A stretch of 15,150 nt of DNA from a virus (IMGVR_UViG_3300049846_001252); one strand, 5' to 3'. Numbered from the stretch's first letter, positions 226-15,150 are shown. Program-made: numbers and translations. The notes: a model not told the origin generated them from the letters alone.

Positions 226-229
226 ATAA

Positions 230-649: not shown

Positions 650-650
650 A

Positions 651-1475: not shown

Positions 1476-1482
1476 TTATTTA

Positions 1483-2076: not shown

Positions 2077-2099
2077 ATACTATTTCTCTCTTTCTTTAG

Positions 2100-2285
2100 T
2101 TATTCCATTAACTCTTTAATATCTTTTTCTAATTCTTGTTCGCGCTTATTTTGAATTTCTATGTGAGCTTTTAATCTTTCTATTTCATCCAAAGCTAATT
2201 CAATTTTTAATTCTAACTCTTGTCTAGCAACTTTAACTCTATTAAGCTCTAACATTCGTTTTTGTTTTTCTAATTTTTTATTCAC
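2100..2285 (-). CDS. small coiled-coil protein
   Basis: 61 aa, heptad Leu/Ile pattern, E/K-rich; start overlaps the upstream stop by 1 nt. Confidence 0.7.
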   Translation of the reverse strand: MNKKLEKQKRMLELNRVKVARQELELKIELALDEIERLKAHIEIQNKREQELEKDIKELME

Positions 2286-2914
2286 TAGCTAGCTCCTTCC
2301 AAGACATGAATTCGGGCATTGAAATCTCCGAGACTTGGACGAAGATGAGTAACTTGCACTTCAACAGTATCTCCGATTCCTAACAATAATCCTTCAGTTC
2401 CGAAAACAAATTCAGTATTTAGTGAATTACCGAAGTAAGTATATTTCTTATCTTCTACTACTGAATTTATCATCACTTCATACATTGCTATATTAGTTCC
2501 GGCTACGTCAATTCGTTTAAGTCGTCCAGCAATTCCCGCAATATAACTTGTTACTATAGTTGGAGTGGAACTTGCAACAGAAGTGACTTCGGCGTATATA
2601 GAATTGACCGTTCCGTCAGGTACAACTTTTACATCAATAGTTCCGTCAGCATTTACGTCCAGAGTATTAACTCCATCAGAAATTGCTATGTTGTCGCCAT
2701 CAGCAGCACTAATCTCAACTTGAGTTTCGTTCTGTACGTTTACATTAAGACTGCCATCAGCATTGATGTCTAATTGGTCGCCATCAGCATCTTCTAACGT
2801 AATGGTACTTATCGTTGCACTAACCTGAGCATCAACGCGAAGTCTATTATCAACCTCGTCATATGCTTGTTTTAACACTTGATTTGCGTCTAATTTTGTT
2901 CCAATGGATGACAT
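2285..2914 (-). CDS. putative virion structural protein, first gene of the minus-strand operon
   Basis: 209 aa; two internal repeats DGDQLDINADGSLNVNV and DGVNTLDVNADGTIDVKV; SD AAAGGA upstream. Confidence 0.65.
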   Translation of the reverse strand: MSSIGTKLDANQVLKQAYDEVDNRLRVDAQVSATISTITLEDADGDQLDINADGSLNVNVQNETQVEISAADGDNIAISDGVNTLDVNADGTIDVKVVPDGTVNSIYAEVTSVASSTPTIVTSYIAGIAGRLKRIDVAGTNIAMYEVMINSVVEDKKYTYFGNSLNTEFVFGTEGLLLGIGDTVEVQVTHLRPSLGDFNARIHVLEGAS

Positions 2915-2959
2915 CTAAGTCCTTTAATTCCGGGTCATATTAACTTGTTAAGAAAGTTC

Positions 2960-2989
2960 TTGACTTTTCCGGACATTGCATGGTATTAC
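2960..2989 (+). promoter_or_regulatory. possible sigma70-type promoter for the rightward operon
   Basis: TTGACT (2960-2965), then TG-G-TATTAC (2981-2989) in the 81-bp divergent spacer; the -10 is imperfect. Confidence 0.35.
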
Positions 2990-2995
2990 TAATAT

Positions 2996-3187
2996 ATGAC
3001 AAAGACACAAGACCAGATTAAATCTAAATTAGAGCAATTAAAGCTGGACATAAAGACTTATGAGCATTTTATAGGAAACGTAATGGTTACACCATACATG
3101 CTTAATAACTTTAAATGGCTTATTGAAACAGTAGAAGAATCTTTAGACCGAACAGAAGGGAATAGAAATAGTGAACCGACGCAATAA
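2996..3187 (+). CDS. hypothetical protein
   Basis: 63 aa ORF, first gene of the plus-strand block. Confidence 0.65.
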   Translation: MTKTQDQIKSKLEQLKLDIKTYEHFIGNVMVTPYMLNNFKWLIETVEESLDRTEGNRNSEPTQ

Positions 3188-3383
3188 TAACAACGAAGCA
3201 ATGTTCTATGACGAGTTAGAGAATTACTTAAACGCAAATAACTATGTTATCTATGATTATGATCTAGACGTAGACAGTGCCGGGAACGTGCTCCTTAGTA
3301 TGCAAACAGAAGACGGACGGGACCACGAGTTTCTAAACCCTACAAAGCTAGACCTAATAAAAGTTCTACGTGAATATGAATAA
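3171..3383 (+). CDS. acidic hypothetical protein
   Basis: 70 aa from GTG (alternative ATG at 3201); D/E/N/Y-rich. Confidence 0.65.
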   Translation: MNRRNNNNEAMFYDELENYLNANNYVIYDYDLDVDSAGNVLLSMQTEDGRDHEFLNPTKLDLIKVLREYE

Positions 3384-3430
3384 CTTCCTCGCTTCGCTCG
3401 GTCGTTGGAAAAATTAAAGGATAAAAAATT

Positions 3431-3625
3431 ATGAAAGTACACGTTAAAGGTTACGATCAGCCCCAGGAAGTTTTAGGTTACAGTAGTAAAAGTTTTGCCA
3501 TAAAAGAAGCCGGGACGCTTGGCGAAAAGACAACATGGGTTGTGAAGCCAGTTATGATAATTAAAGAACGGGGCAGCAATAAGATATTGGCCATAGACTT
3601 AGAGGAAGTAGAACGTGAGGGATAA
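3431..3625 (+). CDS. hypothetical protein
   Basis: 64 aa; SD AAAGGA upstream. Confidence 0.7.
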   Translation: MKVHVKGYDQPQEVLGYSSKSFAIKEAGTLGEKTTWVVKPVMIIKERGSNKILAIDLEEVEREG

Positions 3626-3642
3626 CAGCAGTTTGTCGAAAG

Positions 3643-3669
3643 GCGCGGTGCTTTCAGACTTGCTTCAAG
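3643..3669 (+). repeat. 27-bp start-associated repeat, copy 1
   Basis: GCGCGGTGC-TTTCAGACTTGCTTCAAG, 7 nt before ATG 3677. Confidence 0.9.
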
Positions 3670-3676
3670 GAATTAT

Positions 3677-3886
3677 ATGAGAGAAATAAAACTTTATGAT
3701 CTAGAACTACTATGCTCTGATTTTGGAGTAAACTTTAGTATCTCCGCAAGCCAAAATGGTTATTTGATTTATCACTTCGGTCCTGTTTCTTGGATGAAAG
3801 TTATTGGGGATAATTTGAATTGGGAAGATTATGTAAATATTAATCGCAGACTTGCCGCAACGTTTCCAGAGAAGGTATTAGGATGA
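3677..3886 (+). CDS. hypothetical protein
   Basis: 69 aa; SD AAGGA formed by the end of the repeat. Confidence 0.7.
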   Translation: MREIKLYDLELLCSDFGVNFSISASQNGYLIYHFGPVSWMKVIGDNLNWEDYVNINRRLAATFPEKVLG

Positions 3887-4149
3887 AAAAACATGTAGCG
3901 GTACTAGCCGATACTCCACAAGAATTTCACGCATTCTCAAACTCTTTTATGAATACGAAAAACTATTATTCAAAATCATATAATAAATTAGAACTCAATA
4001 ATCAAACGTTCCATATGGTACTTACTCCAGACGATGTTCGCGGGCAAAATCTAGATGGGTTTATTGGTGTGGGTCGATGGTATATACATTGGACGCCTGA
4101 GCGAATACAGAATTATATAATTCCAAATATGGCAAAGAGAACTCCATGA
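3883..4149 (+). CDS. hypothetical protein
   Basis: 88 aa; ATGA overlaps with both neighbours. Confidence 0.75.
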   Translation: MKKHVAVLADTPQEFHAFSNSFMNTKNYYSKSYNKLELNNQTFHMVLTPDDVRGQNLDGFIGVGRWYIHWTPERIQNYIIPNMAKRTP

Positions 4150-4724
4150 ATATAATCAGTATTGATTTGGAAATGAACAAGCCGTCGAACAAAATTATAG
4201 AGGTTGGCTTCTGTATTGTAAATGTTAAGAAGGAACAAATTCTAACACAGCAAAAAATTTATATACATCCAGGAGAAAAGTTGAGTCCGGAGATTGTCGA
4301 ACTCACGGGCATTACTGATGAGCTTTTAGAAAAGGAAGGCGTTGCTTCGTTGGAAGTTGCGTATAACCAAATGGTACATTGGTGTAACAAACTTCAAACA
4401 CACAAGCATCCGGTTCAGTGGGGTACTGACCATTATGAACTAAAAAAACAATTAGGCATTGATTGGGAAAATTATATTTTTTCAAGGCGGGGCATAGATG
4501 TAAAAGCTTTGTACCAAACGTACATGATGTGTGCGCCACAAGGAAAAACTGTTGCCGGATTAAGGAAGGCGTTGCAGAGTTTAGGAGAAGAGTTCCAAGG
4601 AAGACAGCATGACGCAATGGACGATGCGATAAACACTTGGCACGTTATGCGACTACTCCAGCGAAAATTTAAGTTGGCAGATTCTATAACAAAAGCTCAT
4701 GCTGAATACAATAAGAAAGACTAA
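4146..4724 (+). CDS. DEDDh 3'-5' exonuclease (DnaQ-like; ERI-1/KapD-like)
   Basis: ExoI IDLEM, ExoII WGTD and ExoIII GRQHDAMDDAINT motifs all present. Confidence 0.9.
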   Translation: MNIISIDLEMNKPSNKIIEVGFCIVNVKKEQILTQQKIYIHPGEKLSPEIVELTGITDELLEKEGVASLEVAYNQMVHWCNKLQTHKHPVQWGTDHYELKKQLGIDWENYIFSRRGIDVKALYQTYMMCAPQGKTVAGLRKALQSLGEEFQGRQHDAMDDAINTWHVMRLLQRKFKLADSITKAHAEYNKKD

Positions 4725-4725
4725 T

Positions 4726-4920
4726 ATGGCGAAGAAAAAGCTAGTTGGCTATATATGCGGAACCGATGTACTAGAGATTTCGTTAGGAGCTACTGACATA
4801 ATTATATATCCTTCGATTACTGAGTTAAAGAAAAAATCAAAGTGTTGGAAAGAATGCGGTATAGTAGAGATTAAACTATATAATCTTAAAACAAAAGTTA
4901 AGGGAACTTTATGTCTTTAA
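4726..4920 (+). CDS. small basic hypothetical protein
   Basis: ATG at 4726 directly after the exonuclease stop (ORF track starts at 4699); MAKKKLVGYICGTD... Confidence 0.65.
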   Translation: MAKKKLVGYICGTDVLEISLGATDIIIYPSITELKKKSKCWKECGIVEIKLYNLKTKVKGTLCL

Positions 4921-5129
4921 TCAGACGTTCGAACATAGATAGACTTATAAGTAAGCTTGGAATTCAAGGAGACGTAGATTATGAGATTACTAAAAATGAA
5001 AAGGGTAAGCCTGTTTTTGTTCTTTATCGGAATCTTCGGCCTGTTGCCGTTGTCAGCGACCCAACCATCCTTAGAATTAAGAACACAATTCTTAAATTCA
5101 ACGGCAGCCAGGGGGAAACAGATGTTTGA
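4911..5129 (+). CDS. hypothetical protein overlapping the cytochrome c 5' end in another frame
   Basis: 72 aa, SD AAGGGA, coupled to the upstream gene; 149 nt overlap with 4981-5352. Confidence 0.45.
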   Translation: MSLIRRSNIDRLISKLGIQGDVDYEITKNEKGKPVFVLYRNLRPVAVVSDPTILRIKNTILKFNGSQGETDV

Positions 5130-5352
5130 GTATAATTGTATTGGATGCCATAACGTTAATCCCAATAAAGACGGATCTATTGGTCCTGCCTTAGCCGGAA
5201 GTAATAAAGAACTGGTACTTTCCAAAGTTCTAAAAGGAATATATCCTGTTGGATACAAGCCTAAACGTGATACAAAAATTATGCCGGTTATGAACTGGTT
5301 AACTGTTGATGATGTAGAGTCAATTGCTAAATATTTAGAAGGTGTTAAATGA
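4981..5352 (+). CDS. secreted class I c-type cytochrome (single haem)
   Basis: SD AAGGAG 9 nt upstream; signal peptide MRLLKMKRVSLFLFFIGIFGLLPLSA; AARGKQMFEYN-CIGCH (CxxCH); GSIGPAL; candidate distal Met in KIMP; C-terminal helix DDVESIAKYL. Confidence 0.88.
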   Translation: MRLLKMKRVSLFLFFIGIFGLLPLSATQPSLELRTQFLNSTAARGKQMFEYNCIGCHNVNPNKDGSIGPALAGSNKELVLSKVLKGIYPVGYKPKRDTKIMPVMNWLTVDDVESIAKYLEGVK

Positions 5353-5663
5353 GTAAATTTAAAGTCGGGGATAGGGTTATATATAAAAAAGCTCGGGCCA
5401 AAGAAAATCTAACTTACAATTTATTTAATTCTTTCATTCCTTCTAGCGGAAATTTAGACTTAGTCCAGGCTGCGGATTTGGCGGGACATCTAATAGTTTC
5501 TAGATCTCATTTAACAAAAACTCCAATTGTTGGAGAAATTATAAAAGCACACTTCCTTGGTTCAGAAAGTGAAAACTTTAAAGTTGAATTTAGATTTAAC
5601 GGACTTACGCATATAATTAATATTGAAACAAAAGCACTTAAACTAATTAAAGGAGATAAATAA
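5349..5663 (+). CDS. hypothetical protein with N-terminal SH3/KOW-like KFKVGDRV motif
   Basis: 104 aa; ATGA overlap with the cytochrome gene; MSKFKVGDRV start is common in small phage proteins. Confidence 0.7.
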   Translation: MSKFKVGDRVIYKKARAKENLTYNLFNSFIPSSGNLDLVQAADLAGHLIVSRSHLTKTPIVGEIIKAHFLGSESENFKVEFRFNGLTHIINIETKALKLIKGDK

Positions 5664-5834
5664 ATGGAAAAATTAACACAAATGGTTCAAAAGATGGTGC
5701 CTCTAGCAATGATGTTCGGCGGGGGAGTTGCGATGGGAGCATTGGCTACTCAGACGAGTCCGGTCGGCGCTATTATAGCTGTAGGGTTAATCGGTATTGG
5801 TATGTTTTTAAATCATAAGAACAAGGCCCAGTGA
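5664..5834 (+). CDS. 56-aa two-transmembrane protein; absent from ORF track
   Basis: SD AAAGGAG at 5649-5655; MEKLTQMVQKMVPLAMMFGGGVAMGALATQTSPVGAIIAVGLIGIGMFLNHKNKAQ*; fills the gap exactly. Confidence 0.8.
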   Translation: MEKLTQMVQKMVPLAMMFGGGVAMGALATQTSPVGAIIAVGLIGIGMFLNHKNKAQ

Positions 5835-5852
5835 TTTCAGACTTGCTTCAAG
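5826..5852 (+). repeat. 27-bp start-associated repeat, copy 2
   Basis: GCCCAGTGA-TTTCAGACTTGCTTCAAG, 9 nt before ATG 5862; 18-bp core identical to copy 1. Confidence 0.9.
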
Positions 5853-5861
5853 AAATATTGA

Positions 5862-6323
5862 ATGTTTAGATTATATAGTGACCTTTTTAAGGTAGAAGAA
5901 AAATTTGACTCACTAATTGGTTATATAAAAGAAAGAGAAAGTCTTGTGAACAAAACAATACAAACTATTGGCACAATTCCTACAACTAACGTTACATACA
6001 AAGACGGGCGATGGGTTGATTCTGCCGGAGAAGAACTGCGCGGAAAAAGAATTGATGCTGAATTTTTAGCGACTAACGCATTGAATGTAAATGTCCAAAG
6101 TATTCCACAGTATGATCAAAAAATTGCCGATATAGAAAATAGAGTCGCGGCATTGGAAAAATTGGTTGAGGTTGACGAAACCAAAGTAAGTAGTAATGGA
6201 AAAGATTTGGCACTCACTTATTTATTAATTCAATTGAAATTATTAGCAGATGACCCAGTGTCAGGCTACGTTTTTGTTCCTAAAGTAATTGATGCTTATA
6301 ATAAGTATTTGGATGCAAAATGA
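5862..6323 (+). CDS. hypothetical protein with coiled-coil segment
   Basis: 153 aa; YDQKIADIENRVAALEKL heptads. Confidence 0.75.
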   Translation: MFRLYSDLFKVEEKFDSLIGYIKERESLVNKTIQTIGTIPTTNVTYKDGRWVDSAGEELRGKRIDAEFLATNALNVNVQSIPQYDQKIADIENRVAALEKLVEVDETKVSSNGKDLALTYLLIQLKLLADDPVSGYVFVPKVIDAYNKYLDAK

Positions 6324-6565
6324 TACATTGGTATTTAGTAGCCGTAATGACCAGTACAATAAATCCTAAATGGGTATCATATAACTTTCTAATAGATCTT
6401 CCTAAAGATCTTTGTCAATATATTGAAATGCAAGATAAGCTTGCGCCTACGTATATTACGGATGTTGCCGGGTATCAAGCAGTTATGACACTTGAATGTG
6501 CCGAAAATTATGAAAGATATCAGAATGTAATTAATACTAGACGAATATCAGCAGGTTGGTGGTAA
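6320..6565 (+). CDS. hypothetical protein
   Basis: 81 aa; ATGA overlap; hydrophobic N-terminus. Confidence 0.65.
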   Translation: MIHWYLVAVMTSTINPKWVSYNFLIDLPKDLCQYIEMQDKLAPTYITDVAGYQAVMTLECAENYERYQNVINTRRISAGWW

Positions 6566-6567
6566 TA

Positions 6568-7089
6568 ATGAACCTATTAGAAATCTGGCGACCTGTAATT
6601 AATTATAAGAACAATTATGAAATATCCAATATGGGTAGAGTTCGAAACATTAAGTCGGGCCACATACTAACTCCTCAACATTCCAAGAGATTAAATAATT
6701 ATACGACGGTTTGTTTAAGTAAAAATAATAAGACATCGACTTTTGCATTAGGTCGATTAGTTTTAAAGCACTTCCAGCGCGATAAAATTTGTAAGAATTT
6801 TGTGGCGCATCATATCGATTTTAATCACAAAAATAATAAAAATTCCAATCTAGTAAAGACAACTCTATCCGAACATTTTCGATTAGTTAAGAAAAAGAAT
6901 AAGGACATTGGTGTGAGTAAAGTAAATATCCGGGGTCTGGACTATTGGAGAGCAGTACTTACTATTAAAAAGAAAATAAAAACTCTTGGATATTTTCAAA
7001 CTAAACAAGAAGCTAAGGAATGTTTTCAGGAGAACTACTTTAAATATAACGGAATTTGGTTAGATATGGAAGGAAATGTAGTGGCATGA
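6568..7089 (+). CDS. NUMOD4-HNH homing endonuclease with C-terminal AP2-like DNA-binding domain
   Basis: EIWRPVINYKNNYEISNMGRVRN (NUMOD4); AHHIDFNHKNNKNSNL...SEH (HNH); GVS...WRAVLTIKKKIKTLGYFQTKQEA (AP2-like). ATG at 6568 preferred over TTG at 6556. Confidence 0.88.
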   Translation: MNLLEIWRPVINYKNNYEISNMGRVRNIKSGHILTPQHSKRLNNYTTVCLSKNNKTSTFALGRLVLKHFQRDKICKNFVAHHIDFNHKNNKNSNLVKTTLSEHFRLVKKKNKDIGVSKVNIRGLDYWRAVLTIKKKIKTLGYFQTKQEAKECFQENYFKYNGIWLDMEGNVVA

Positions 7090-7090
7090 G

Positions 7091-7117
7091 CCCCCGAGCT
7101 TTCAGAAGTGTACCAAG
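7091..7117 (+). repeat. 27-bp start-associated repeat, copy 3 (degenerate)
   Basis: CCCCCGAGC-TTTCAGAAGTGTACCAAG, 13/18 core identity, 6 nt before ATG 7124. Confidence 0.75.
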
Positions 7118-7123
7118 GAAATT

Positions 7124-7315
7124 ATGCGAGAAAAATTAATTAAACTGTTGCAAGCAAAAATTGGACTATATCCTAGGCTTCAGAAGGCGGTCAAAGCTGG
7201 CGACAGGAAAGAAGCTAAGCAGATTCACGAAACAATGGACGAACTTCAGCATCAAATTGAAGCACTAGAAGATGAATATTTAAAAAAGGTCGAAAATGAA
7301 CTTAAAAAGAAGTAA
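7124..7315 (+). CDS. small helical/coiled-coil protein
   Basis: 63 aa; SD AAGGA. Confidence 0.7.
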   Translation: MREKLIKLLQAKIGLYPRLQKAVKAGDRKEAKQIHETMDELQHQIEALEDEYLKKVENELKKK

Positions 7316-7508
7316 ATTTGAACTAGTAGAACAGGCAAATAACACGCACAGATTATTTGTTCTTGATGGTGGCCTTGCAATTCGCGTAAATCGGGTATTA
7401 AAATCATATCCTTCTGGCGCACTTAAAAGAGACTCTGAGGGCATATTTACTGTACCAGAAAATTCATGGACCAAGATTGCAAAAATCTTAGGCATTAAGA
7501 ATAGTTAA
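7296..7508 (+). CDS. hypothetical protein
   Basis: 70 aa; last gene before the convergent junction. Confidence 0.65.
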   Translation: MNLKRSKFELVEQANNTHRLFVLDGGLAIRVNRVLKSYPSGALKRDSEGIFTVPENSWTKIAKILGIKNS

Positions 7509-7624
7509 ATACCAAAAAATTTTGAAATCGGGGAAAACACGCGTCGAGGACCGGGGGTATACCTGGGTAGCCATCGGACCGAGATCGCGCAATCTAGACC
7601 CCTTAGCGTTCGTTTTAAACGATC

Positions 7625-7924
7625 CTACTTATTCTGACGGGCATGTCTTCTTCTGTCGGTAACTTGCTTAGCAACCCGTCTTAACCTACATGGATACGAA
7701 CAAACTACCTGTTTAGCCTTTGTTGTCAGGAATTCGTTATTACATTCCGGGCATACTTTTAGCTTCTCTTCTACCCCCCTTTTGTCCTTTGTATTTTGTG
7801 AAATACAATTAGGACAAATTTTCCCATGCCATTTCTTTCCAGTTTCGTCGGAATAGATATACTGACTATCCTTCATATTTAGGATTTTTGTTTTATCTTT
7901 GTTGCATACTTTACACAGCGCCAT
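7625..7924 (-). CDS. double zinc-finger protein (CxxC...CxxC and CxxC-x13-CSxxC), probable nucleic-acid binder
   Basis: CKVC, CPNC, CPEC, CSYPC; SD GAGGTG on the minus strand; basic C-terminus. Confidence 0.8.
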   Translation of the reverse strand: MALCKVCNKDKTKILNMKDSQYIYSDETGKKWHGKICPNCISQNTKDKRGVEEKLKVCPECNNEFLTTKAKQVVCSYPCRLRRVAKQVTDRRRHARQNK

Positions 7925-7944
7925 GTTTTCACCTCTGCTTCAAG
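7918..7944 (+). repeat. 27-bp repeat, copy 4 (degenerate, overlaps zinc-finger start and SD)
   Basis: GCGCCATGT-TTTCACCTCTGCTTCAAG, 14/18 core identity. Confidence 0.6.
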
Positions 7945-8021
7945 AACTTGTTAAGACCAATGATAATTTGTATCCACTTATACCCCCATTTTATGGGTAT
8001 AACCAGATATGAATTATAACT

Positions 8022-8048
8022 CCCGCCTGTTTTCAGACTTGCTTCAAG
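8022..8048 (+). repeat. 27-bp repeat, copy 5
   Basis: CCCGCCTGT-TTTCAGACTTGCTTCAAG, 18/18 core identity; intergenic, no adjacent start codon. Confidence 0.9.
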
Positions 8049-8102
8049 ATTTATATACCTTATATTTGTTCCCATGTATACCGACCCCAACTGATCTTCA
8101 TT

Positions 8103-8120
8103 CCCCCCTACCCCCCCCCC
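8103..8120. other. C6-TA-C10 homopolymer tract
   Basis: Read directly; sits at the compositional boundary. Confidence 0.9.
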
Positions 8121-8121
8121 G

Positions 8122-8230
8122 TGGCATGACTCTTGCATATATACAAAAAACGTGCCAACTAAAATCTTGGCATAGATCTTGCATAGAGAGAAGTCCCCTT
8201 GCAAGAATCGTACTAGGCATACTTTTTGCA
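8122..8230 (+). promoter_or_regulatory. three tandem sigma54 (-24/-12)-type promoter motifs
   Basis: TGGCAT-GACTC-TTGCA (8122-8137), TGGCAT-AGATC-TTGCA (8168-8183), AGGCAT-ACTTT-TTGCA (8215-8230); consensus TGGCAC-N5-TTGCW. Weaker minus-strand TGGCAC-GTTTT-TTGTA at 8157-8142. Confidence 0.75.
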
Positions 8231-8274
8231 GGGGAGACAGCAGTATCAGAATGAGACACAATCCGAAATAGTGT

Positions 8275-8303
8275 TTGACTTTATATATTAGTTTGGTTAT
8301 ACT
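8275..8303 (+). promoter_or_regulatory. sigma70-type promoter
   Basis: TTGACT-N17-TATACT upstream of SD GAGGAG and ATG 8332. Confidence 0.8.
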
Positions 8304-8331
8304 ACATTGAAACTAACGAGGAGTGTATAAA

Positions 8332-8520
8332 ATGAAATTCGATTTTAGAGGAAGAGTGTGTCAAATTGAGACATTCAAGACAAAGGGTGTTGTTAAGTAC
8401 AGAGCATTAGTGTTTAGTCATAGACTAGGAATTAAGTCATACTTTAAAACATTGGGCGAGTATGAGACAAGACGCGACGCATTGTTAGGATTGATGAGTC
8501 AAGTTGAGACGGTGGGGTGA
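8332..8520 (+). CDS. small basic hypothetical protein, first gene of the right block
   Basis: ATG 8332 with SD GAGGAG (ORF track uses GTG 8323); 62 aa. Confidence 0.7.
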   Translation: MKFDFRGRVCQIETFKTKGVVKYRALVFSHRLGIKSYFKTLGEYETRRDALLGLMSQVETVG

Positions 8521-8570
8521 GGTGGCTCAGTGTCTCGCTTTGAGAAGAATACATTTTTTTACTATTTTAC

Positions 8571-8597
8571 TTAAGTTTTAAAAATATAAGCCGATGA
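8571..8597 (+). promoter_or_regulatory. sigma28 (FliA)-type promoter 1
   Basis: TTAAGTTT-N11-GCCGATGA vs consensus TAAAGTTT-N11-GCCGATAA; followed by SD AAGGA and ATG 8621. Confidence 0.8.
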
Positions 8598-8620
8598 GTA
8601 TAGTATAAGGAAACTAAAAC

Positions 8621-9037
8621 ATGAAACAAGATGCAATTAGATATATAAATCAGACAATACTAAAACAAGCGTCTAAACTTAACTATACAGTTAAGAGCGA
8701 AGCGCCGAGTACAGAGGTCGATCTATTTAATAGCCCTAGTCTAATAGTCTGGTCTGGACAAAGTGACAAGACCGTGTTTCAAAATGAGACAGTGAATTGG
8801 GCTTTTAGAGCTTTACATGACGCATTGCATCTTAAGACTAAACTTAATTTCACTCATGACGCCGAAATTGAACTAGGTCACATTCAAGCATCTAAGTATG
8901 ATTCGGACTTATTAAGAGAGTTAGTTTTTTGCGAAGTCTCAATGCAAGCCATGTATCATAAGGAGACAGGATTGTTTTTGCAAGACCAAGCTTCATTCAC
9001 TGAAAATTTTTTAAAAAAGATTAAAGTTTTAAAATAA
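8621..9037 (+). CDS. hypothetical protein with FRALHDALH motif (possible zincin-like metal site)
   Basis: 138 aa; HDxxH followed by ...AE pattern seen in recurrent phage hypothetical proteins (recalled). Confidence 0.7.
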   Translation: MKQDAIRYINQTILKQASKLNYTVKSEAPSTEVDLFNSPSLIVWSGQSDKTVFQNETVNWAFRALHDALHLKTKLNFTHDAEIELGHIQASKYDSDLLRELVFCEVSMQAMYHKETGLFLQDQASFTENFLKKIKVLK

Positions 9038-9048
9038 ATGACCGATAA
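9022..9048 (+). promoter_or_regulatory. sigma28 (FliA)-type promoter 2
   Basis: TAAAGTTT-N11-ACCGATAA; followed by SD AAGGAG (9058-9063) and ATG 9074. Confidence 0.8.
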
Positions 9049-9073
9049 GTTATTTATAAGGAGATACAAGACA

Positions 9074-9334
9074 ATGACAATTTTAAAAAACGATGTTTTA
9101 GAGTTTCGAGTTAGTTATTATAAAAATAATAGACTGTATCAAATTAAGTCATCTAGCTATGCCTATGCATTAGGTGTATTCACTGGACTAAATTGCTCGG
9201 CGTTTTTAGACTTTAAAGCGTCTAATGACATAGGTGATTCAAGTCTTAGTGCTAGTCTAATGAAACGAGACAAGCAAGGAAACGTTTCAGTTATACACAA
9301 ACACTATTTGTCTCAGATTGAGAATCGAGTTTAG
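9074..9334 (+). CDS. hypothetical protein
   Basis: ATG 9074 preferred because it has an SD; the ORF-track ATG 9038 lies inside the promoter. Confidence 0.65.
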   Translation: MTILKNDVLEFRVSYYKNNRLYQIKSSSYAYALGVFTGLNCSAFLDFKASNDIGDSSLSASLMKRDKQGNVSVIHKHYLSQIENRV

Positions 9335-9336
9335 TT

Positions 9337-9609
9337 ATGACAAAAAAATATAAAACATTAGACCAAATAAGACGAGACTTAGACGCGGGCATTGACATAT
9401 ATTGGTGCAATCTTGGGTACAAGGTGCACTATGTTCCAGCATTAGACAACTTTGAGTCATACTCTGTTAAAAACGGAAAAGCAATTCGGGTGTCTTATAT
9501 TGAGACATACTTTGGGAGTCTTATCCAGCCTTCAGACATTGGAAGTTGTTTTAGTATCCAAGTCCCTAAGCAAAAGGAGAAGTCATGTCGCAAAATGATA
9601 CAATCTTAA
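9337..9609 (+). CDS. hypothetical protein
   Basis: 90 aa; operon-packed. Confidence 0.7.
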   Translation: MTKKYKTLDQIRRDLDAGIDIYWCNLGYKVHYVPALDNFESYSVKNGKAIRVSYIETYFGSLIQPSDIGSCFSIQVPKQKEKSCRKMIQS

Positions 9610-9728
9610 TTCAAGGGGTTAAGTTTCTCATTATGAGACGAGAGTCGCATCGGATGCTCTTGTCTTGGACTGAGAAGTCGGGCATAGTTAAGACTCGCTG
9701 GATTGCATACAAAGGAAAGGTTTAGTCT

Positions 9729-9923
9729 ATGTATGATTCAATGACTTTGAATGAACTAATAGAGCGAGAAAAATCGGCGCTCTGGTTGCTGAAAAACACA
9801 ACGTCAAGCGAAGCATTGCAGCAAGACGCAAAAAAAGACCTTTGGGCTATTAGGAAGGCTATGTCTAAAAACTATGACTTTAATTGGATAACTCAAGACT
9901 TTAAAAAAAGAAAGGGTTTATAA
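9729..9923 (+). CDS. hypothetical protein
   Basis: 64 aa; SD GGAAAGG. Confidence 0.7.
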   Translation: MYDSMTLNELIEREKSALWLLKNTTSSEALQQDAKKDLWAIRKAMSKNYDFNWITQDFKKRKGL

Positions 9924-9924
9924 A

Positions 9925-10275
9925 ATGAAACCGATTCAATCTTGGAACATAGACGGCGCGACTGTTAACATATATTCAGAGTATGACTCAGACTGGTCAT
10001 GGGTTGAGGAGTCTGAGGTCGAGGTTTTGAGAAAAATTAGTCGTGGGGACTTATTTCAGGTCATTATCGAAGTCAAAGTCTACGACAAAACCGGCGAAAT
10101 AGACGGGACTGATTCACTCGGCGGCGTGGTTTTAGAATACTCAATTAAAAAAGACTTTGAAAGTCAAGTCCGAGAAGTTATCAATGACCATGCAATGATT
10201 GATAATGCAAAAAATGAATTAGACAAAAAAATTAAAAATATACTGAAAGTGTATCAAAATGAAACAAAGCCTTAA
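9925..10275 (+). CDS. acidic hypothetical protein
   Basis: 116 aa; D/E-rich. Confidence 0.7.
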   Translation: MKPIQSWNIDGATVNIYSEYDSDWSWVEESEVEVLRKISRGDLFQVIIEVKVYDKTGEIDGTDSLGGVVLEYSIKKDFESQVREVINDHAMIDNAKNELDKKIKNILKVYQNETKP

Positions 10276-10771
10276 TGAACTAACTCGGCGCATAGTGGAT
10301 AATGATCTAGGCATTAAAGTCTATTTAAAGTCGTATGACGCGCCCGCTTTCCTATTAAAAACGATTGACAGGTATGAAGCGCAATACCATCCAGAAGTTG
10401 ACTCTATAGTCATGAATGAAGCATGGCATAGGTCCGAAGTTGATTTTTTTAGTACATTGATTCATGAGCTTAGTCATGCGACGGGACATGCGTCAAGACT
10501 TAACAGAGCGGGGATAAGTCAACGTTTCGGCATGGCATGGTTAGACTTTCACGTCGAGGAATTAATTGCGCAAAGGTCTTGCCAACTGGTCATGCAAAGT
10601 CTAGGCCTAAACGCTTGTCCGATTGAATATAAATGTTCGACTAACTACATGGCAAAACAATTGTTTCAGATTGAGACGCTGAGTCCGAGTTATGAAATAA
10701 ACGCGGACGATATTGAGACACAAGCTAATGATTCGGCGCAATTTATTTTAAAAAAAGTACTCAAGTTTTAA
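10259..10771 (+). CDS. stand-alone zincin-like metallopeptidase (ArdC C-terminal / MPTase-PolyVal type)
   Basis: FFSTLIHELSHATGHASRLNR...VEELIAQ matches the HExxH-TGH-xxRLxR...EELxAE signature of ArdC-type domains; no N-terminal ssDNA-binding domain. Confidence 0.85.
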   Translation: MKQSLNELTRRIVDNDLGIKVYLKSYDAPAFLLKTIDRYEAQYHPEVDSIVMNEAWHRSEVDFFSTLIHELSHATGHASRLNRAGISQRFGMAWLDFHVEELIAQRSCQLVMQSLGLNACPIEYKCSTNYMAKQLFQIETLSPSYEINADDIETQANDSAQFILKKVLKF

Positions 10772-10787
10772 AAAAAGAAGCCGAAGA
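10761..10787 (+). promoter_or_regulatory. sigma28 (FliA)-type promoter 3
   Basis: TCAAGTTT-N11-GCCGAAGA; followed by SD AAAGGAG and GTG 10827. Confidence 0.75.
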
Positions 10788-10826
10788 GTATTATATACGC
10801 GCTTTCCTAAACAAAGGAGTTGACAA

Positions 10827-11021
10827 GTGAATAAATATAAATACAAGTTTTCTGAATTATCAGACAAGGCAAAAAAACAAGCGGCGCATTATTATCGACA
10901 AGGATTGTTTGAAACGCGAGACGCGGACGACGTTCCTACAATTCAGGAATGTTTAGAGTATTGCCAAGATTGTGAAAATGATTTACTTTATAACAAAAAC
11001 GGAAAGATTAAAGGAGACTAA
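10827..11021 (+). CDS. hypothetical protein
   Basis: 64 aa; YKFSELSDKAKKQA N-terminus seen in many small phage proteins (recalled). Confidence 0.7.
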   Translation: MNKYKYKFSELSDKAKKQAAHYYRQGLFETRDADDVPTIQECLEYCQDCENDLLYNKNGKIKGD

Positions 11022-11025
11022 GACC

Positions 11026-11946
11026 ATGCAAGAACAAAAAAAGAAGCGAATTAAAAAAGTGTTTGACTCTAGACAGCTTTGTCATGTTTGGGCAAGTGAA
11101 ACGCAAAGCGAAGGTCGAAATAGTGGTAGATCTATGTTTTTTGAGAATAACACAATATACAGCTATGGTCGGCATTATACACTAGGCGTCATTCATACTA
11201 ACAAGCGCGGCGAAAAATTAGGACTTATAAACTCTGAAAGGTACAGCGTCACGACTTCCAAGCATCGAAGTCAAGCCGCCAGTGCCTTGTATGGTCGAAT
11301 GAATGTCTTGCATGTTCCTAGACCTAATGACTTAATGAGTGAGACTAATGAAATATATTTAACAAATGCCGTCGCAAGTTATGTTGAGGAAATTTTTAAC
11401 AGTCGAAAACATTGCAGCGAATACACTAAGGAAGGAATGCTAGACAGTATTAAAGATTTAAACATACTTTTAAAATTTAAAGGTAAAAAGGAGTTTAGCC
11501 TAGATGCTGAGACAATGACTGTCATTGATGAAATATTAGTCGAGAAGATTGAACAAAACAAAGCTAGGGACGCGGCTAGGTCTGAGAAAAGAAAGGCTCA
11601 ATTCGCTGAGTATAAAAGGCAACAGGAATTAAAACGCCAAGACTATCTGTCTAGTGTTATGTTATGGCCTACGTTTCAAAACACTAAGTCAATACCTAGT
11701 CAATATTTCCCGCATGACATGATTCGAGTCAATAAATTAACACTTGAAGTAGAAACGAGTCGAGGCGCGAAAGTTCCTTTAGATGAAGCATTGAAAGCGT
11801 TTCAGGACTTGGAGTCGGGCATTGATGTCATAGGTCGCAGAGTCGGAAGCTTTACAATTGATGAAGTCACACAAGACAAGATCGTAGTCGGGTGCCATGA
11901 GTTAGACAGAGCACAAGTTAGAAAAATTTTAAGCGAGGGGCTATAA
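11026..11946 (+). CDS. conserved phage protein of unknown function (HVWA...FFENNTIYSYGRHY; ETSRGAKVP...VGCH)
   Basis: ATG 11026 with SD AAAGGAG (ORF track starts 10972); N- and C-terminal globular parts joined by a charged helix. Confidence 0.8.
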   Translation: MQEQKKKRIKKVFDSRQLCHVWASETQSEGRNSGRSMFFENNTIYSYGRHYTLGVIHTNKRGEKLGLINSERYSVTTSKHRSQAASALYGRMNVLHVPRPNDLMSETNEIYLTNAVASYVEEIFNSRKHCSEYTKEGMLDSIKDLNILLKFKGKKEFSLDAETMTVIDEILVEKIEQNKARDAARSEKRKAQFAEYKRQQELKRQDYLSSVMLWPTFQNTKSIPSQYFPHDMIRVNKLTLEVETSRGAKVPLDEALKAFQDLESGIDVIGRRVGSFTIDEVTQDKIVVGCHELDRAQVRKILSEGL

Positions 11947-11947
11947 A

Positions 11948-12217
11948 ATGAATTATCAGATTAAAGGACCTTGGGAAGTTACTTTTAGGGAATTGACAGG
12001 TCAATATCACATCAAAGGAATGCATCAATTAGACAACGATGAGCACAAAATGAATGCTAACCTTATTGCTGCGGCACCGGAAATGCTTGAAACATTAAAG
12101 GAAATAGTTGAAATATTAGATAATAAAATTGCAAAGCTTGGTCCAAAGGATAATGACCTAGTCAAGCCTCGAAACATGGCTTTACATGCTATTTACAGAA
12201 CGACGGGGGGAAAATAA
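11948..12217 (+). CDS. phage protein with GPW...NANLIAAAPEMLE motif
   Basis: 89 aa; matches the widespread TPGPW...ANARLIAAAPELLEAL family. Confidence 0.8.
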   Translation: MNYQIKGPWEVTFRELTGQYHIKGMHQLDNDEHKMNANLIAAAPEMLETLKEIVEILDNKIAKLGPKDNDLVKPRNMALHAIYRTTGGK

Positions 12218-12218
12218 A

Positions 12219-12416
12219 ATGAAAATTGATTTAAGAGAATTTTCAGACGATGAGTTAAGCTTGTATGTTATGAATGATGAAAGTTTTTACCGAATGCGTC
12301 GAAATAGACGGGCATTGGTTGACTTGCTGGATAGTGTCTTTTTATATACGGACTGCCAGCTTGAAACTTTGAACCAAGACCTAGACGACGAAGAGAAGGA
12401 GAGCGAGTCATGCTAA
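12219..12416 (+). CDS. small acidic hypothetical protein
   Basis: ATG 12219 after SD GGGGGG; 65 aa, FSDDELSLYVMNDESFY. Confidence 0.7.
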   Translation: MKIDLREFSDDELSLYVMNDESFYRMRRNRRALVDLLDSVFLYTDCQLETLNQDLDDEEKESESC

Positions 12417-12880
12417 CAAAGGGTGAATTACAAAAATTAAGTGATCGAGTCGATGAGATAGACCAAACGATGGACTTATGTGACTCAAATCGAGACGCTG
12501 ATATCTTGGATAATTTAGAGGCCGAGCTTGATGAAATTATGAAACAACTTGAGGAAACGCCACAAAAAGGCAAGCTAGAAAGTCGAGAATTCGCTCTGTT
12601 AAGCGAGCCGCTAGACTATCAAGTAAGCTTCAGGCTTCAGGAATTAGAGCGTCATTTTTCAAAAGATTTAATTCGGGGGATTGTATTAAGTCGGGACTAC
12701 GCGCCAGTTCCTAAACCGACCCATCTTGAGACGTGGGACTCCAGCGAAATTATTAGACTTCACTTGAGCAATCTCATTATGACATACCCAATGAAAAATA
12801 TTGTTGACGTGTTTGAGATTCATGGATACGATGTCAAAAAGCTGAAGCAAGGCTTAAAACAAAAAAGAAAGGCTGGTTAA
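12410..12880 (+). CDS. hypothetical protein with acidic N-terminal coiled coil
   Basis: 156 aa; SD AAGGAG. Confidence 0.75.
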   Translation: MLTKGELQKLSDRVDEIDQTMDLCDSNRDADILDNLEAELDEIMKQLEETPQKGKLESREFALLSEPLDYQVSFRLQELERHFSKDLIRGIVLSRDYAPVPKPTHLETWDSSEIIRLHLSNLIMTYPMKNIVDVFEIHGYDVKKLKQGLKQKRKAG

Positions 12881-12882
12881 TT

Positions 12883-13257
12883 ATGTCTTATTGCATAACA
12901 AAAATAAAAGGGTATTCATTCACTGGAGAATTCGACGGGGAGTTAACAACCGAACAACTAGCCGAACTCGGTCTAGACGCTCAACCTGAAAAAGTCCCGC
13001 TTATTGAGGGAGACTTTTCGATTGACTGGGACGATGACATTGCTCAGCCGATGATTGATACCATGTACTTAATTAATCCATACGATGACAAAAAATTTAT
13101 AACTCTTGATCTAGACTCGGTTGACACGGCAACACTAGAGGAGCATCTTGCGCAGTACGGTGATTCGGCGGACTGGGAAAGCGACCGGATAGCAGAACGA
13201 GCGGACTGGGCCTATGACTCTTGGAAAGACCGAATGATGGAAGACGGGGGGGAATAG
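12883..13257 (+). CDS. highly acidic protein, candidate DNA mimic
   Basis: 124 aa with 20 Asp + 12 Glu vs 6 Lys + 3 Arg. Confidence 0.75.
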   Translation: MSYCITKIKGYSFTGEFDGELTTEQLAELGLDAQPEKVPLIEGDFSIDWDDDIAQPMIDTMYLINPYDDKKFITLDLDSVDTATLEEHLAQYGDSADWESDRIAERADWAYDSWKDRMMEDGGE

Positions 13258-13259
13258 CT

Positions 13260-13400
13260 ATGCACAGACAAACAGAGGAGACTATAGGACTGATTGTGTT
13301 CGGGGGATTGATGTTGGCTCTCGCGTGGGTTTTCCTATACACTTATGGCGAACTAGCGGGCCTTCCGGCTTTATTAACTGAAGTATTGAAAGGGTTATAA
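13260..13400 (+). CDS. 46-aa single-pass membrane protein; absent from ORF track
   Basis: MHRQTEETIGLIVFGGLMLALAWVFLYTYGELAGLPALLTEVLKGL*; G-rich SD; fills the gap between 13257 and 13403. Confidence 0.75.
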   Translation: MHRQTEETIGLIVFGGLMLALAWVFLYTYGELAGLPALLTEVLKGL

Positions 13401-13402
13401 AC

Positions 13403-13618
13403 ATGAAAAAGACAGAGTATGACAATTTATCAAGCGAAGCAAAAAAGGTCATTGACTACATCTTAGACCATGAACACGAGGACTTTATTGAGAATCCGAC
13501 TAAGACTCATGTCTATTACTTGGCCTTAGTGGTGACTGAAGGAAAGTCAACGGCGAATAAGATTTACTTTGAGACCATAGAGGAAAGTCTAGAAAATAGT
13601 GAGGTGTTTGGTGACTAA
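13403..13618 (+). CDS. small acidic hypothetical protein
   Basis: 71 aa. Confidence 0.7.
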   Translation: MKKTEYDNLSSEAKKVIDYILDHEHEDFIENPTKTHVYYLALVVTEGKSTANKIYFETIEESLENSEVFGD

Positions 13619-14048
13619 CTTCACAATGATAAGTCAGGGCACACGACTCATTTTTAGAAAGTACGGTCAGGACGGGACTACAGTCACCATCGGCGGACTA
13701 CCAAAGGACGGCTCATATAAGGTCGAGGATTGTCTAGGACGAGACATCACGGCATGGGTCAAGGAGCGGCAAGCCTTGGGGGACCGGAAGCTGGGTCAAA
13801 TTATTAAGGTCATGAACTTTATCGACAGGGTGTCAACGGCACAACGTCTCTTTTTGGATAGTCAAAAGATGTTTAAGGACGACCAGTTAGTTGAGGACCT
13901 TACGTATGCTTTCCTAAACTTTAAGGAAATAGGCGAAAAGTATATAAAAGAAAATGAACACCTACGAGCCGATAGAACTAAAGGGGGCGTTTCAAAAACT
14001 GAGGGACCTTTAGGTTCCGAGGATAGGACTAAAGCGAGGAATTTATGA
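13599..14048 (+). CDS. hypothetical protein (start uncertain, possibly ATG 13626)
   Basis: 149 aa ORF in operon. Confidence 0.65.
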   Translation: MRCLVTNFTMISQGTRLIFRKYGQDGTTVTIGGLPKDGSYKVEDCLGRDITAWVKERQALGDRKLGQIIKVMNFIDRVSTAQRLFLDSQKMFKDDQLVEDLTYAFLNFKEIGEKYIKENEHLRADRTKGGVSKTEGPLGSEDRTKARNL

Positions 14049-14251
14049 ATAATGAGCCAAGAATGAAGATAGAAGCCCTGAAGTATTACAAAGGTCGAGT
14101 CATCTGCGAGTTTCGGCTAGAAACGAGCAATATAAAGGAAGCTTATAGTAAGTATAAGATGTTGCGTGACAATAACTCAGGCTGGGTCATTAAAATGTCT
14201 CAAAACGAAAATACGTTTTTCGACAAAATGGCTCATTTTGAGTCAGGATAG
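14045..14251 (+). CDS. hypothetical protein
   Basis: 68 aa; ATGA overlap. Confidence 0.65.
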   Translation: MNNEPRMKIEALKYYKGRVICEFRLETSNIKEAYSKYKMLRDNNSGWVIKMSQNENTFFDKMAHFESG

Positions 14252-14260
14252 GGGTTTAGT

Positions 14261-14632
14261 ATGGATAAGTTAAAAAAAATGCAAAAAAGACCCCTTAACT
14301 TGCTATTAGGACTAATATACACGTTCCTAATAGGGTGCGGAAATGCCTCTGAGAGCCCCGTAAATGCCCCAGAATCGACGACTAGTCCGACCCCAATATC
14401 ATCTAGCCCTGTTCCGCAGCCAGACGAGGACTCTGGTCCGAGGAAATGCGAGGAACCTAAAAAATGTCCCTTACCGGAGCGGACTAAGGAATATAAGGAC
14501 CTACGTGATGCCTTCCTAAAGGCTTTGGAATTATGCCATGAACAGAGCCGAGAATTCCCCGTTAAGGAATTGTTAAGACATTTAGAAGACAGAGAACACG
14601 GTCGCGGGCAGGTTCCTAAGAAAAGAGATTAA
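14261..14632 (+). CDS. putative lipoprotein with Ser/Pro/Thr-rich linker
   Basis: Basic N-terminus, hydrophobic LNLLLGLIYTFL, lipobox LIG-C; then ESPVNAPESTTSPTPISSSPVPQP and a Cys-containing helical domain. Confidence 0.7.
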   Translation: MDKLKKMQKRPLNLLLGLIYTFLIGCGNASESPVNAPESTTSPTPISSSPVPQPDEDSGPRKCEEPKKCPLPERTKEYKDLRDAFLKALELCHEQSREFPVKELLRHLEDREHGRGQVPKKRD

Positions 14633-14668
14633 GGTTTTTTCCGACGAAGGAATGAAGTTTAAACGTAA

Positions 14669-14683
14669 TGACTGAGTCAGTCA
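14669..14683. promoter_or_regulatory. 15-bp palindrome, candidate operator
   Basis: TGACTGA-G-TCAGTCA in the spacer 16 nt upstream of GTG 14700. Confidence 0.45.
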
Positions 14684-14699
14684 AGAAAGAGAGTTAATT

Positions 14700-14999
14700 G
14701 TGAGCCGAGTAAAGAGTGAAGACCTAGCAAAAGCGGAAGCTTTGTCAGAGAGATTAGAGGACATGTTAGTAGGGCTTAGGGCCGAGACGCAAATGCGGCG
14801 AGAGGTCCTAACTAAGCGTTTTCAGGATTCGCAGGTAGTTTCCTTGAATGTTGACGGTAAGTCTTATGAGTTAGGCCCGAAGTCAAGAGAAGTTGTTAGA
14901 AAGGCTTTACTGGAGTTTACGGAGAAGCATTTGCTAGAAGGTTTAGAGGATATAAAACAACAGGCCCAAAATGAGGGCGGGTTTGGTTCTAGGGAGTAG
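14700..14999 (+). CDS. hypothetical coiled-coil protein
   Basis: 99 aa from GTG; E/K/R/L-rich. Confidence 0.7.
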   Translation: MSRVKSEDLAKAEALSERLEDMLVGLRAETQMRREVLTKRFQDSQVVSLNVDGKSYELGPKSREVVRKALLEFTEKHLLEGLEDIKQQAQNEGGFGSRE

Positions 15000-15017
15000 T
15001 TTCGGGTTCTACAAGAT

Positions 15018-15044
15018 GCGCCGAGCTTTCACACTTGCTCCAAG
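15018..15044 (+). repeat. 27-bp repeat, copy 6
   Basis: GCGCCGAGC-TTTCACACTTGCTCCAAG, 16/18 core identity; intergenic. Confidence 0.85.
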
Positions 15045-15150
15045 GTTTGTTAGGAGCGTTAGCTGCAAGCGGTAGCGACGCAGGAAAGGTTTTATGGATA
15101 TCAGGATATTTAAGTTTATTGGTTCGTTTTTTATAGCTCAGCATATGTTC

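Follow-up and report, generated by a model that had tools for sequence, protein, structure and literature searches.

An early operon and its control region

The uncultured phage IMGVR_UViG_3300049846_001252 has a genome of ~80 kb (a contig of 79,150 bp), and the 15,150-nucleotide stretch of its DNA analysed here (hereafter the window) carries an array of a palindrome, GTCTCA-N3-TGAGAC, which begins at position 8243 in a control region and continues rightward over the genes of an early operon. Comparison with related phages indicates that this array is a real, conserved, DNA-level set of predicted protein-binding sites, most of which are written into coding sequence. No DNA match to the window was found among deposited phages, IMG/VR gave no relatives of two window proteins, and no Rfam family or tRNA was detected in the window; nothing relevant emerged from the literature, whether searched by sequence or by topic.

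The control region, of 400 bp, lies at the left of the array and comprises a C-rich tract, three sigma-54-type elements, the first palindrome (site 1) and a sigma-70-type promoter. The C-rich tract (CCCCCCTACCCCCCCCCC, 8103-8120, plus strand) forms its left edge. The sigma-54-type elements (8122-8230, plus strand) read TGGCAT-N5-TTGCA at 8122 and 8168 and AGGCAT-N5-TTGCA at 8215, immediately left of site 1. The sigma-70-type promoter, TTGACT-17-TATACT (8275-8303, plus strand), is the putative driver of the rightward early operon, and site 1 is centred near its -60 position. Further rightward, a sigma-28 (FliA)-like promoter repeat (TAAGTTT...GCCGATAA-like) occurs on the plus strand at 8568-8607, 9019-9058 and 10758-10797, the first copy standing in front of a gene for a 138-amino-acid protein (8621-9037).

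The genes beneath the array encode small orphan proteins and a zincin-like protein of anti-restriction type (10259-10771). Just past the dense part of the array lies the gene of a 324-amino-acid protein whose relatives in RHEph01, vB_BsubS-Delta and CcrBL10 are encoded in terminal repeats or close to where the record begins, and we therefore take the block as an early, host-takeover one. The 138-amino-acid protein has 56 homologues, and its gene is the only one in this region that is common to all the relatives considered below. It displays an invariant D-x2-H core inside a nearly invariant ALHDALH stretch. Its structural model is of high confidence (predicted local distance difference test, pLDDT, 94) and gave no significant match, with weak minigluzincin- and ArdC-like hits; it may be a small metallopeptidase-like early protein.

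A dense and regional array of palindromes

We scanned the window for GTCTCA-N3-TGAGAC with two or fewer mismatches, using 200 dinucleotide-preserving shuffles as the null. The scan returned 15 matches, whereas the shuffles averaged 0.33 and never exceeded 3; the array is therefore real and beyond chance. An initial annotation of this DNA, made from the sequence alone, had already described it: its seven copies with a single mismatch were found again, next to eight with two, while its total of 13 has to be raised to 15 and its ten copies within 8243-10677 to 12, the clustering in that interval being upheld. As it had stated, the left 8.2 kb of the window holds no copy (composition-based expectation 0.24), and the three intergenic copies, at 8243, 8532 and 9625, are borne out; the other 12 of the 15 are intragenic. 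Copies with three mismatches follow the same division, with 8 found to the right of 8243 where 2.1 are expected and 2 to the left where 2.4 are expected. Site density amounts to 7.1 per kb in 8243-9642, 1.8 in 9643-10742, 0.7 in 10743-15150 and 0 in 1-8242. The proposed decrease with distance thus holds in the window but not in the relatives, where the sites form clusters without a smooth gradient. Spacing is irregular, from 36 to 1819 bp, across several genes.

Site 1 (GTATCAGAATGAGAC, 8243-8257, one mismatch) is intergenic, just downstream of the third sigma-54-type element, and is followed after 17 nt by the -35 box of the sigma-70-type promoter. The first gene (8332-8520) contains site 2 (8358-8372, one mismatch), which is read in frame 2 as CQIET, and, 10 nt before its stop codon, site 3 (8496-8510, two mismatches), read as SQVET. 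Site 3 forms a close pair (36 bp) with the intergenic site 4 (8532-8546, two mismatches), located upstream of the sigma-28-like promoter copy at 8568-8607. Within the 138-amino-acid gene are site 5 (8776-8790, one mismatch, FQNET) and site 6 (8953-8967, two mismatches, YHKET), and site 7 (9310-9324, one mismatch, SQIEN) ends 10 nt before the stop of the gene at 9038-9334. The following gene (9337-9609) bears site 8 (9492-9506, one mismatch, SYIET) and, 8 nt before its stop, site 9 (9587-9601, two mismatches), the sole copy in frame 1, which makes a second close pair (38 bp) with the intergenic site 10 (9625-9639, one mismatch). Site 11 (10251-10265, two mismatches, YQNET) lies at the end of the gene at 9925-10275, and the ATG within it is the start codon of the zincin-like gene, which itself contains site 12 (10663-10677, one mismatch, FQIET), the last of the dense part. 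More distant are site 13 (12482-12496, two mismatches), a frame-0 copy, site 14 (12718-12732, two mismatches, THLET) and site 15 (14230-14244, two mismatches, AHFES), 7 nt before the stop of the gene at 14045-14251. All these peptides had been listed in the initial annotation except YHKET (8953), which our scan adds.

The repeated unit and the level of selection

Alignment of the sites defines the unit as a 17-bp dyad, tGTcTCA-www-TGAgACa (T-GTcTCA-www-TGAgAC-R), with an A/T-rich spacer of 3 bp and TGTCTCAAAATGAGACA as the 17-mer. The palindrome is extended by a T at -1 in 12 of the 15 window sites and by a purine at +1 in 14, and its most variable positions are 3 and 13. The two halves are unequally kept in the window, TGAGAC being intact 13 times and GTCTCA 3 times, while in the relatives both are kept equally well. 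The reading frame accounts for this imbalance. Indeed, nearly all coding copies (10 of 12) share one frame, as had been remarked, namely xxG TNT CAN NNT GAG ACx, where position 3 alters the amino acid (S/C/F/Y) and position 13 is a synonymous third base; the right half is accordingly the better kept.

Several features argue that it is the nucleotide sequence which is maintained. GAG encodes the Glu of the site in 9 of 10 copies, compared with a share of 46% in the block. The frame-0 copy at 12482 reads TCA AAT CGA GAC, its TGA having become CGA as the initial annotation pointed out, and among the frame-0 copies of the window and the relatives T10 alone is lost, TGA being replaced by CGA or GGA. 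In a comparison set of 44 sites from the window and five relatives, none of the ~70 deviations from the consensus restores a Watson-Crick pair. Furthermore, alignment of the orthologues of the 138-amino-acid gene shows no conservation of the QxET peptides found in the window, most orthologues having QD(A/P)(S/A) at the position of site 5, and sites turn over between relatives, although the orthologue of one of them (L001) has a site at the position equivalent to site 6.

As judged from these alignments, selection is on the DNA and not on the peptide, and it appears to bear on the number of sites per region rather than on their positions. Dyad symmetry, lack of compensatory changes and coding constraint characterise DNA that a symmetric protein dimer recognises, and the predicted sites are most likely the targets of one symmetric protein dimer. 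The initial annotation had proposed just such a target of a dimeric protein, maintained within the limits set by coding, indifferent to gene borders and restricted to one segment; turnover in orthologues, avoidance of TGA, lack of compensatory changes and confinement all agree with it. Two outcomes that would have spoken against it were not observed, as the sites are regional both in the window and in 40 kb of L001 rather than uniformly frequent, and the palindrome persists where QxET is absent rather than being lost where QxET is kept.

The array in related phages

Relatives were collected as the DNA around homologues of the 138-amino-acid gene, from assemblies and from Joint Genome Institute metagenomes. 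Less than one site with two or fewer mismatches is expected per relative locus, and we found 12 in L210, 11 in L001, 8 in L003, 6 in L333, 5 in L006, and 4 each in L004 and L338. Two short contigs are far richer, with 25 sites in 3.07 kb (L329) and 18 in 1.64 kb (L332), that is one site per 90-120 bp. In the equivalent region of the window, L001, L210 and L003, the GTCTCA-N3-TGAGAC palindrome is also the top dyad found de novo (p 5e-7 to 4e-23). All 11 sites of L001 fall within 3.5 kb of the 40 kb examined in its 86.9-kb contig, and five of them occupy 1.3 kb of non-coding DNA in which AT-rich stretches and other repeats also occur.

The position of the array relative to the transcription units is constant. 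The sites of the relatives begin in the control region and extend into the rightward operon, never into the adjoining leftward one, and the leftward operons of L001, L004, L006 and L210 hold none. L338 has a near-identical first site, GTATCAGAATGAGGC, at the place equivalent to site 1. In both the window and L001 a site lies 15-17 nt upstream of a -35 box, the arrangement in L001 being site, 15 nt and TTGACA, and in L001 and L003 a site abuts the -24 box of a sigma-54-type element. Apart from the 138-amino-acid gene, the genes beneath the arrays are non-orthologous between relatives, and yet the array persists; it thus belongs to the locus, and sites must arise anew in incoming genes. A preference of the sites for gene junctions, seen in the window (6 of 12), was not retained overall, as 32 of 92 sites lie in junction zones where 25.3 are expected (p=0.07).

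Other elements of the control region are shared as well. The C-rich tract (CCTACCCCCCCC-like) is present in every relative, with or without an array (including L001, L002, L003, L006 and L338), and could serve as a signal for packaging, replication or entry. At the head of the early operon, sigma-54-type elements (TGGCAY-N5-TTGCA) are clustered at 9443-9700 in L001, 7789-8065 in L003 and 40-260 in L338. In the window and L338 these elements alternate between strands, face to face around short AT-rich centres, an arrangement that is odd for promoters, and they may instead trap polymerase, form an array bound by protein or belong to an origin. A CGATAAG box similar to that of the sigma-28-like repeat precedes the 138-amino-acid orthologue at ~9950-9985 in L001 and ~9960-9995 in L006.

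Despite an equivalent control region, L002, L211 and L334-L337 lack the array. On the tree of the 138-amino-acid protein, arrays are restricted to an inner clade and are patchy there, with ~6 changes, a distribution suggesting that the array is an accessory layer. We also considered that array-less relatives might use another palindrome, but the strong signals of L337 and L335 are 15-bp tandem direct repeats and not dyad arrays. L337 has ~30 tandem copies of TAATTCGGGCNATTA at 11807-12260 with an exact period of 15 bp, and L335 has a different 15-mer at 10541-10660; in both, the repeats lie ~6 kb downstream of the 138-amino-acid gene. L211, also array-less, encodes two stand-alone Fis-type HTH_8 proteins of 70-73 amino acids (228-449 and 1178-1390) and has a single sigma-54-type match in its 20-kb locus, none being in the control region.

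In L003, an insertion sequence (IS) with an IS1595-family transposase is inserted at 8978-9853, between the control region and the 138-amino-acid gene, which hints that the phage spends time resident in cells. A host search with this transposase gave scattered matches, probably to misbinned metagenome-assembled genomes, and indicated no host; in five of the genomes matched, the 17-mer is at control level.

Search for the binding protein

Several proteins of these loci were considered as the binder and set aside. The product of the first gene (8332-8520) was examined as an AP2-like fold, but its model, a beta3-alpha arrangement (pLDDT 80), has no PDB match. The 138-amino-acid protein is also encoded by array-less relatives and its model contains no DNA-binding fold. 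A Zn-ribbon family (7625-7924) occurs in the array-less L211 too, and an HTH_3 protein of L208 is not conserved.

When searched in IMG/VR contigs, the exact 17-mer was found in tandem arrays, with a spacing of 18-22 or ~60-70 bp, inside genes encoding proteins of 250-400 amino acids. These proteins have an HTH_36-type N-terminus or homologues annotated as RepA-like (e.g. L110, L206/L160/L150, L130, L139 and L090). L148/L181 has an in-gene array as well, in the gene of a 392-amino-acid protein without Pfam or phage match, and L159 combines an HTH_36 protein encoded beside a single-stranded DNA-binding protein (SSB) with dispersed sites. Among the relatives, L001 encodes a stand-alone HTH_36 protein of 103 amino acids (29.7 bits); since it has only 2 homologues in 5.8 billion proteins, it is not the binder of the clade, and neither the window nor the loci of the other relatives yielded an HTH_36 gene.

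A permuted control palindrome puts these matches into perspective. It yields multi-site viral loci in 16 of 117 cases, against 20 of 119 for the array motif, and the idea that the palindrome is unusually popular among phages was abandoned accordingly; because the control finds about as many loci, the sharing of the palindrome with other phages is weak evidence. Lineages that tie the motif to HTH_36 number ~7, compared with 1-2 for the control. In the course of this comparison, an unrelated phage (L327, an IMG/VR locus of 13.6 kb) was seen to carry the control palindrome CTGTCA-N3-TGACAG 22 times across the locus, mostly in pairs exactly 29 bp apart, and this dyad array is unexplained.

Discussion

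One close likeness among known systems is with the conserved inverted repeats (CIRs) of the Streptomyces phage phiC31, the operators of its c repressor. The early region of this phage contains 7 perfect dispersed copies of TACTCAC|GTGAGTA in 16.5 kb. Here too, in the window and in the relatives, one palindrome of comparable size is dispersed in many copies over a phage early region, and the core element CTCA...TGAG is common to both. However, arrays of the phiC31 type have their copies in intergenic spaces beside promoters or terminators, and the 7 of phiC31 fall between annotated genes, whereas here 12 of 15 are intragenic, the copies are imperfect, and 92 sites show no significant enrichment at junctions. 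The present dyad further differs by its 3-bp spacer and by an array up to ten times denser in relatives.

A second comparison is with the stoperators of Cluster A mycobacteriophages (bound by L5 gp71 and Bxb1 gp69), which are 13-bp asymmetric repressor sites oriented with transcription; numbering 20-30 per genome, they are spread genome-wide, mostly away from promoters, and are thought to block elongation and so to silence whole operons (PMC6550527). The array resembles them in having numerous sites beyond promoters. It departs from them in that its sites are mostly coding, are confined to 2.4-6 kb of one operon, and are true dyads whose halves are equally kept in the relatives; the 11 sites of L001 occupy 3.5 of 40 kb and the left 8.2 kb of the window is empty. 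Together with the palindromes of phiC31, L5-type stoperators provide a precedent in phages for dispersed operator arrays. We infer that the present array is another of this kind, distinguished by its symmetry, its mostly intragenic sites, its confinement to one region and, in some relatives, its high density.

The reading that we tentatively favour, with confidence somewhat short of even, is that a dimeric regulator, probably encoded by the phage, uses the palindromes as an array of operators or roadblocks to silence the first early block. The two halves (tGTcTCA), separated by the A/T-rich 3-bp spacer, would present their major grooves to the dimer roughly one helical turn apart. The binder would occupy promoter-proximal sites, at about -60 of the sigma-70-type promoter and against the -24 box in two relatives, and would also fill many intragenic sites; joint occupancy would then prevent transcription of the first early block, be it once the early phase is over or during a carrier or lysogenic state. 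Dimer sites, promoter contact, polarity along the rightward operon, selection on number over position and an accessory distribution are together best accommodated by such an array, and we infer repression as its output. This also agrees with one item in the list of functions given by the initial annotation, block-wide repression, which fits best, while protection of entering DNA, an injection pause and segregation are speculation. The lack of an array in close relatives whose control region is equivalent makes it most likely that the binder is an accessory protein encoded by the phage.

A number of observations weigh against the favoured reading. Pfam and PHROG scans of the window open reading frames under or beside the array, and of selected ones from the relatives, gave no consistent DNA-binding domain, and the window genes under or next to the array contain no helix-turn-helix, ParB or bacterial enhancer-binding protein (bEBP) domain. 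No DNA-binding fold was recognisable in the model of the first gene product, and no gene family among the fetched loci tracks the presence of the array. No replacement palindrome was found in the array-less relatives, unlike what heteroimmune operator systems display. Furthermore, one site at -60 of a promoter occupies an activator-like position, the density of one site per 90-120 bp in L329 and L332 is far above what roadblocking needs, and a temperate life is hinted at solely by the IS in L003 and by a short integrase-like gene that L006 and L211 carry.

If an operator array is the right explanation, one protein would govern host-takeover and anti-restriction genes through intragenic sites, a compact way of timing or silencing toxic early functions, and the coding sequence of every gene entering the block would be constrained by the sites. 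The clade consists of uncultured phages of ~70-90 kb from peat, waste water and other metagenomes and is otherwise dark matter; as it also has sigma-54-type and sigma-28-type promoter elements, the array offers a handle on an undescribed phage regulatory programme. A well-defined 17-bp site with dozens of natural variants makes it feasible to find the binder directly.

Among the alternatives, a view to which we give a minor but real share of belief is that the array is not an operator set but a region-specific loading or coating field over the first-expressed anti-defence block. A protein would nucleate on dozens of degenerate dyads, as a clamp in the manner of KorB or ParB or as a new kind of binder, and would build a switchable, phage-made, chromatin-like domain. 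In that case each gene newly acquired by the block must evolve its own sites.

Rather more doubtful is the proposal that the sites bind a replication initiator of the lambda-O/RepA-like winged-helix type (Pfam HTH_36), the array beside the early promoters being an origin zone or a control locus that titrates the initiator. Lambda-O origin iterons contain the dyad xxCTCAAAAxGAGxx inside the initiator gene; the present dyad is equal to it in length and partly in sequence and is likewise written in coding DNA. The tandem copies of the exact 17-mer inside HTH_36/RepA-like genes of other viral contigs, the HTH_36 protein and dispersed sites next to SSB in L159, the HTH_36 protein of L001 together with its five sites in non-coding DNA containing AT-rich stretches, and the ~7 lineages against 1-2 for the control all point in this direction. 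However, the array is neither tandem, with repeats every ~20 bp, nor regular: its spacings, 36-626 bp across six unrelated genes, are unlike any iteron origin, and no initiator gene lies beneath it. The lack of HTH_36 genes in the window and in the loci of relatives other than L001, the two homologues of the L001 protein and the similar yield of the control palindrome in multi-site loci argue in the same sense, and array-less relatives would need a different origin.

Still less probable, in our opinion, is a nucleation field for a coating or clamp protein (ParB/KorB-like or other) that organises, tethers, segregates or protects the segment, for instance as first-entering DNA. As in the ParB-parS and KorB-OB systems, whose protein is able to spread and to silence, the palindromes are clustered and lie inside genes. 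Gene borders are ignored (p=0.07 for junctions), density reaches one site per 90-120 bp, and the turnover of sites suggests selection on number in the region and not on position, all of which would suit a coat. The site parS itself is a 16-bp 7-2-7 palindrome with the half-site TGTTNCA. The statement of the initial annotation that the array matches no parS, matS or Noc site therefore stands for the spacing, which is 7-3-7, but is less secure for the half-site, TGTcTCA being one specified base away from that of parS. Against this proposal, the array is polar relative to the promoters, lying strictly on their rightward-transcribed side, which fits a link with transcription better than one with entry. 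Moreover, neither the genes of the window nor those tabulated for 40 kb of L001 and for the fetched loci, less than half of each genome, include one of the ParB or KorB type.

We regard as improbable that the sites are the enhancer (upstream activating sequence) of a bEBP looping to the sigma-54-type promoter cluster at the head of the operon. NtrC sites have the same 7-3-7 dyad geometry, and in the window, L001, L003, L210 and L338 clusters of sigma-54-type elements either directly precede the first palindromes on the left or alternate with them. Nevertheless, each of the two elements occurs without the other, which weakens such a role: L002 and L334-L336 have many sigma-54-type elements and zero palindromes, whereas L332 and L333 have dense palindromes and no sigma-54-type element on the contig. 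In addition, the fetched locus tables list no bEBP gene (PF00158), the two sites that abut a -24 box are placed where a bound dimer would hinder polymerase, and the sigma-54-type elements face each other on both strands and so count as candidate promoters.

It is more improbable again that a host transcription factor having the dyad as its operator is titrated by the sites, which would then be a decoy or sponge, or is read out through them. The fetched loci, in which no phage binder was found, would agree with a host factor, but close relatives of similar GC content with an equivalent control region do without the array, and position 15, a C in 35 of the 44 sites compared, is at odds with the TGAGAAT variant of the Fur box. 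Finally, an RNA hairpin (6 bp with a 3-nt loop), a by-product of the shared QxET peptide or plain chance is largely refuted, even though the coding copies are all on the sense strand of one operon and unrelated phages (L180, L159 and L144) have perfect copies just upstream of ribosome-binding sites, since most copies have an unpaired stem mismatch with zero compensatory changes, intergenic copies exist, the peptide is not conserved in orthologues, and no shuffle of 200 exceeds 3 matches where the window has 15.

Further features of the window

Two other features of the window deserve mention. A direct repeat of 34 nt, with the core TTTCAGACTTGCTTCAAG, is present in seven copies, at 3640, 5207, 5823, 7088, 7915, 8019 and 15015; those at 3640, 5823, 7088 and 15015 end a few bases short of a start codon. 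It has the look of a promoter or leader cassette private to the left-hand block of genes, and no exact match of its core was found in IMG/VR. The second is a phage-encoded class I cytochrome c (4981-5352; Pfam PF00034, E=7e-10), an unusual cargo amid phage genes, which implies a host equipped with a cytochrome c maturation system.

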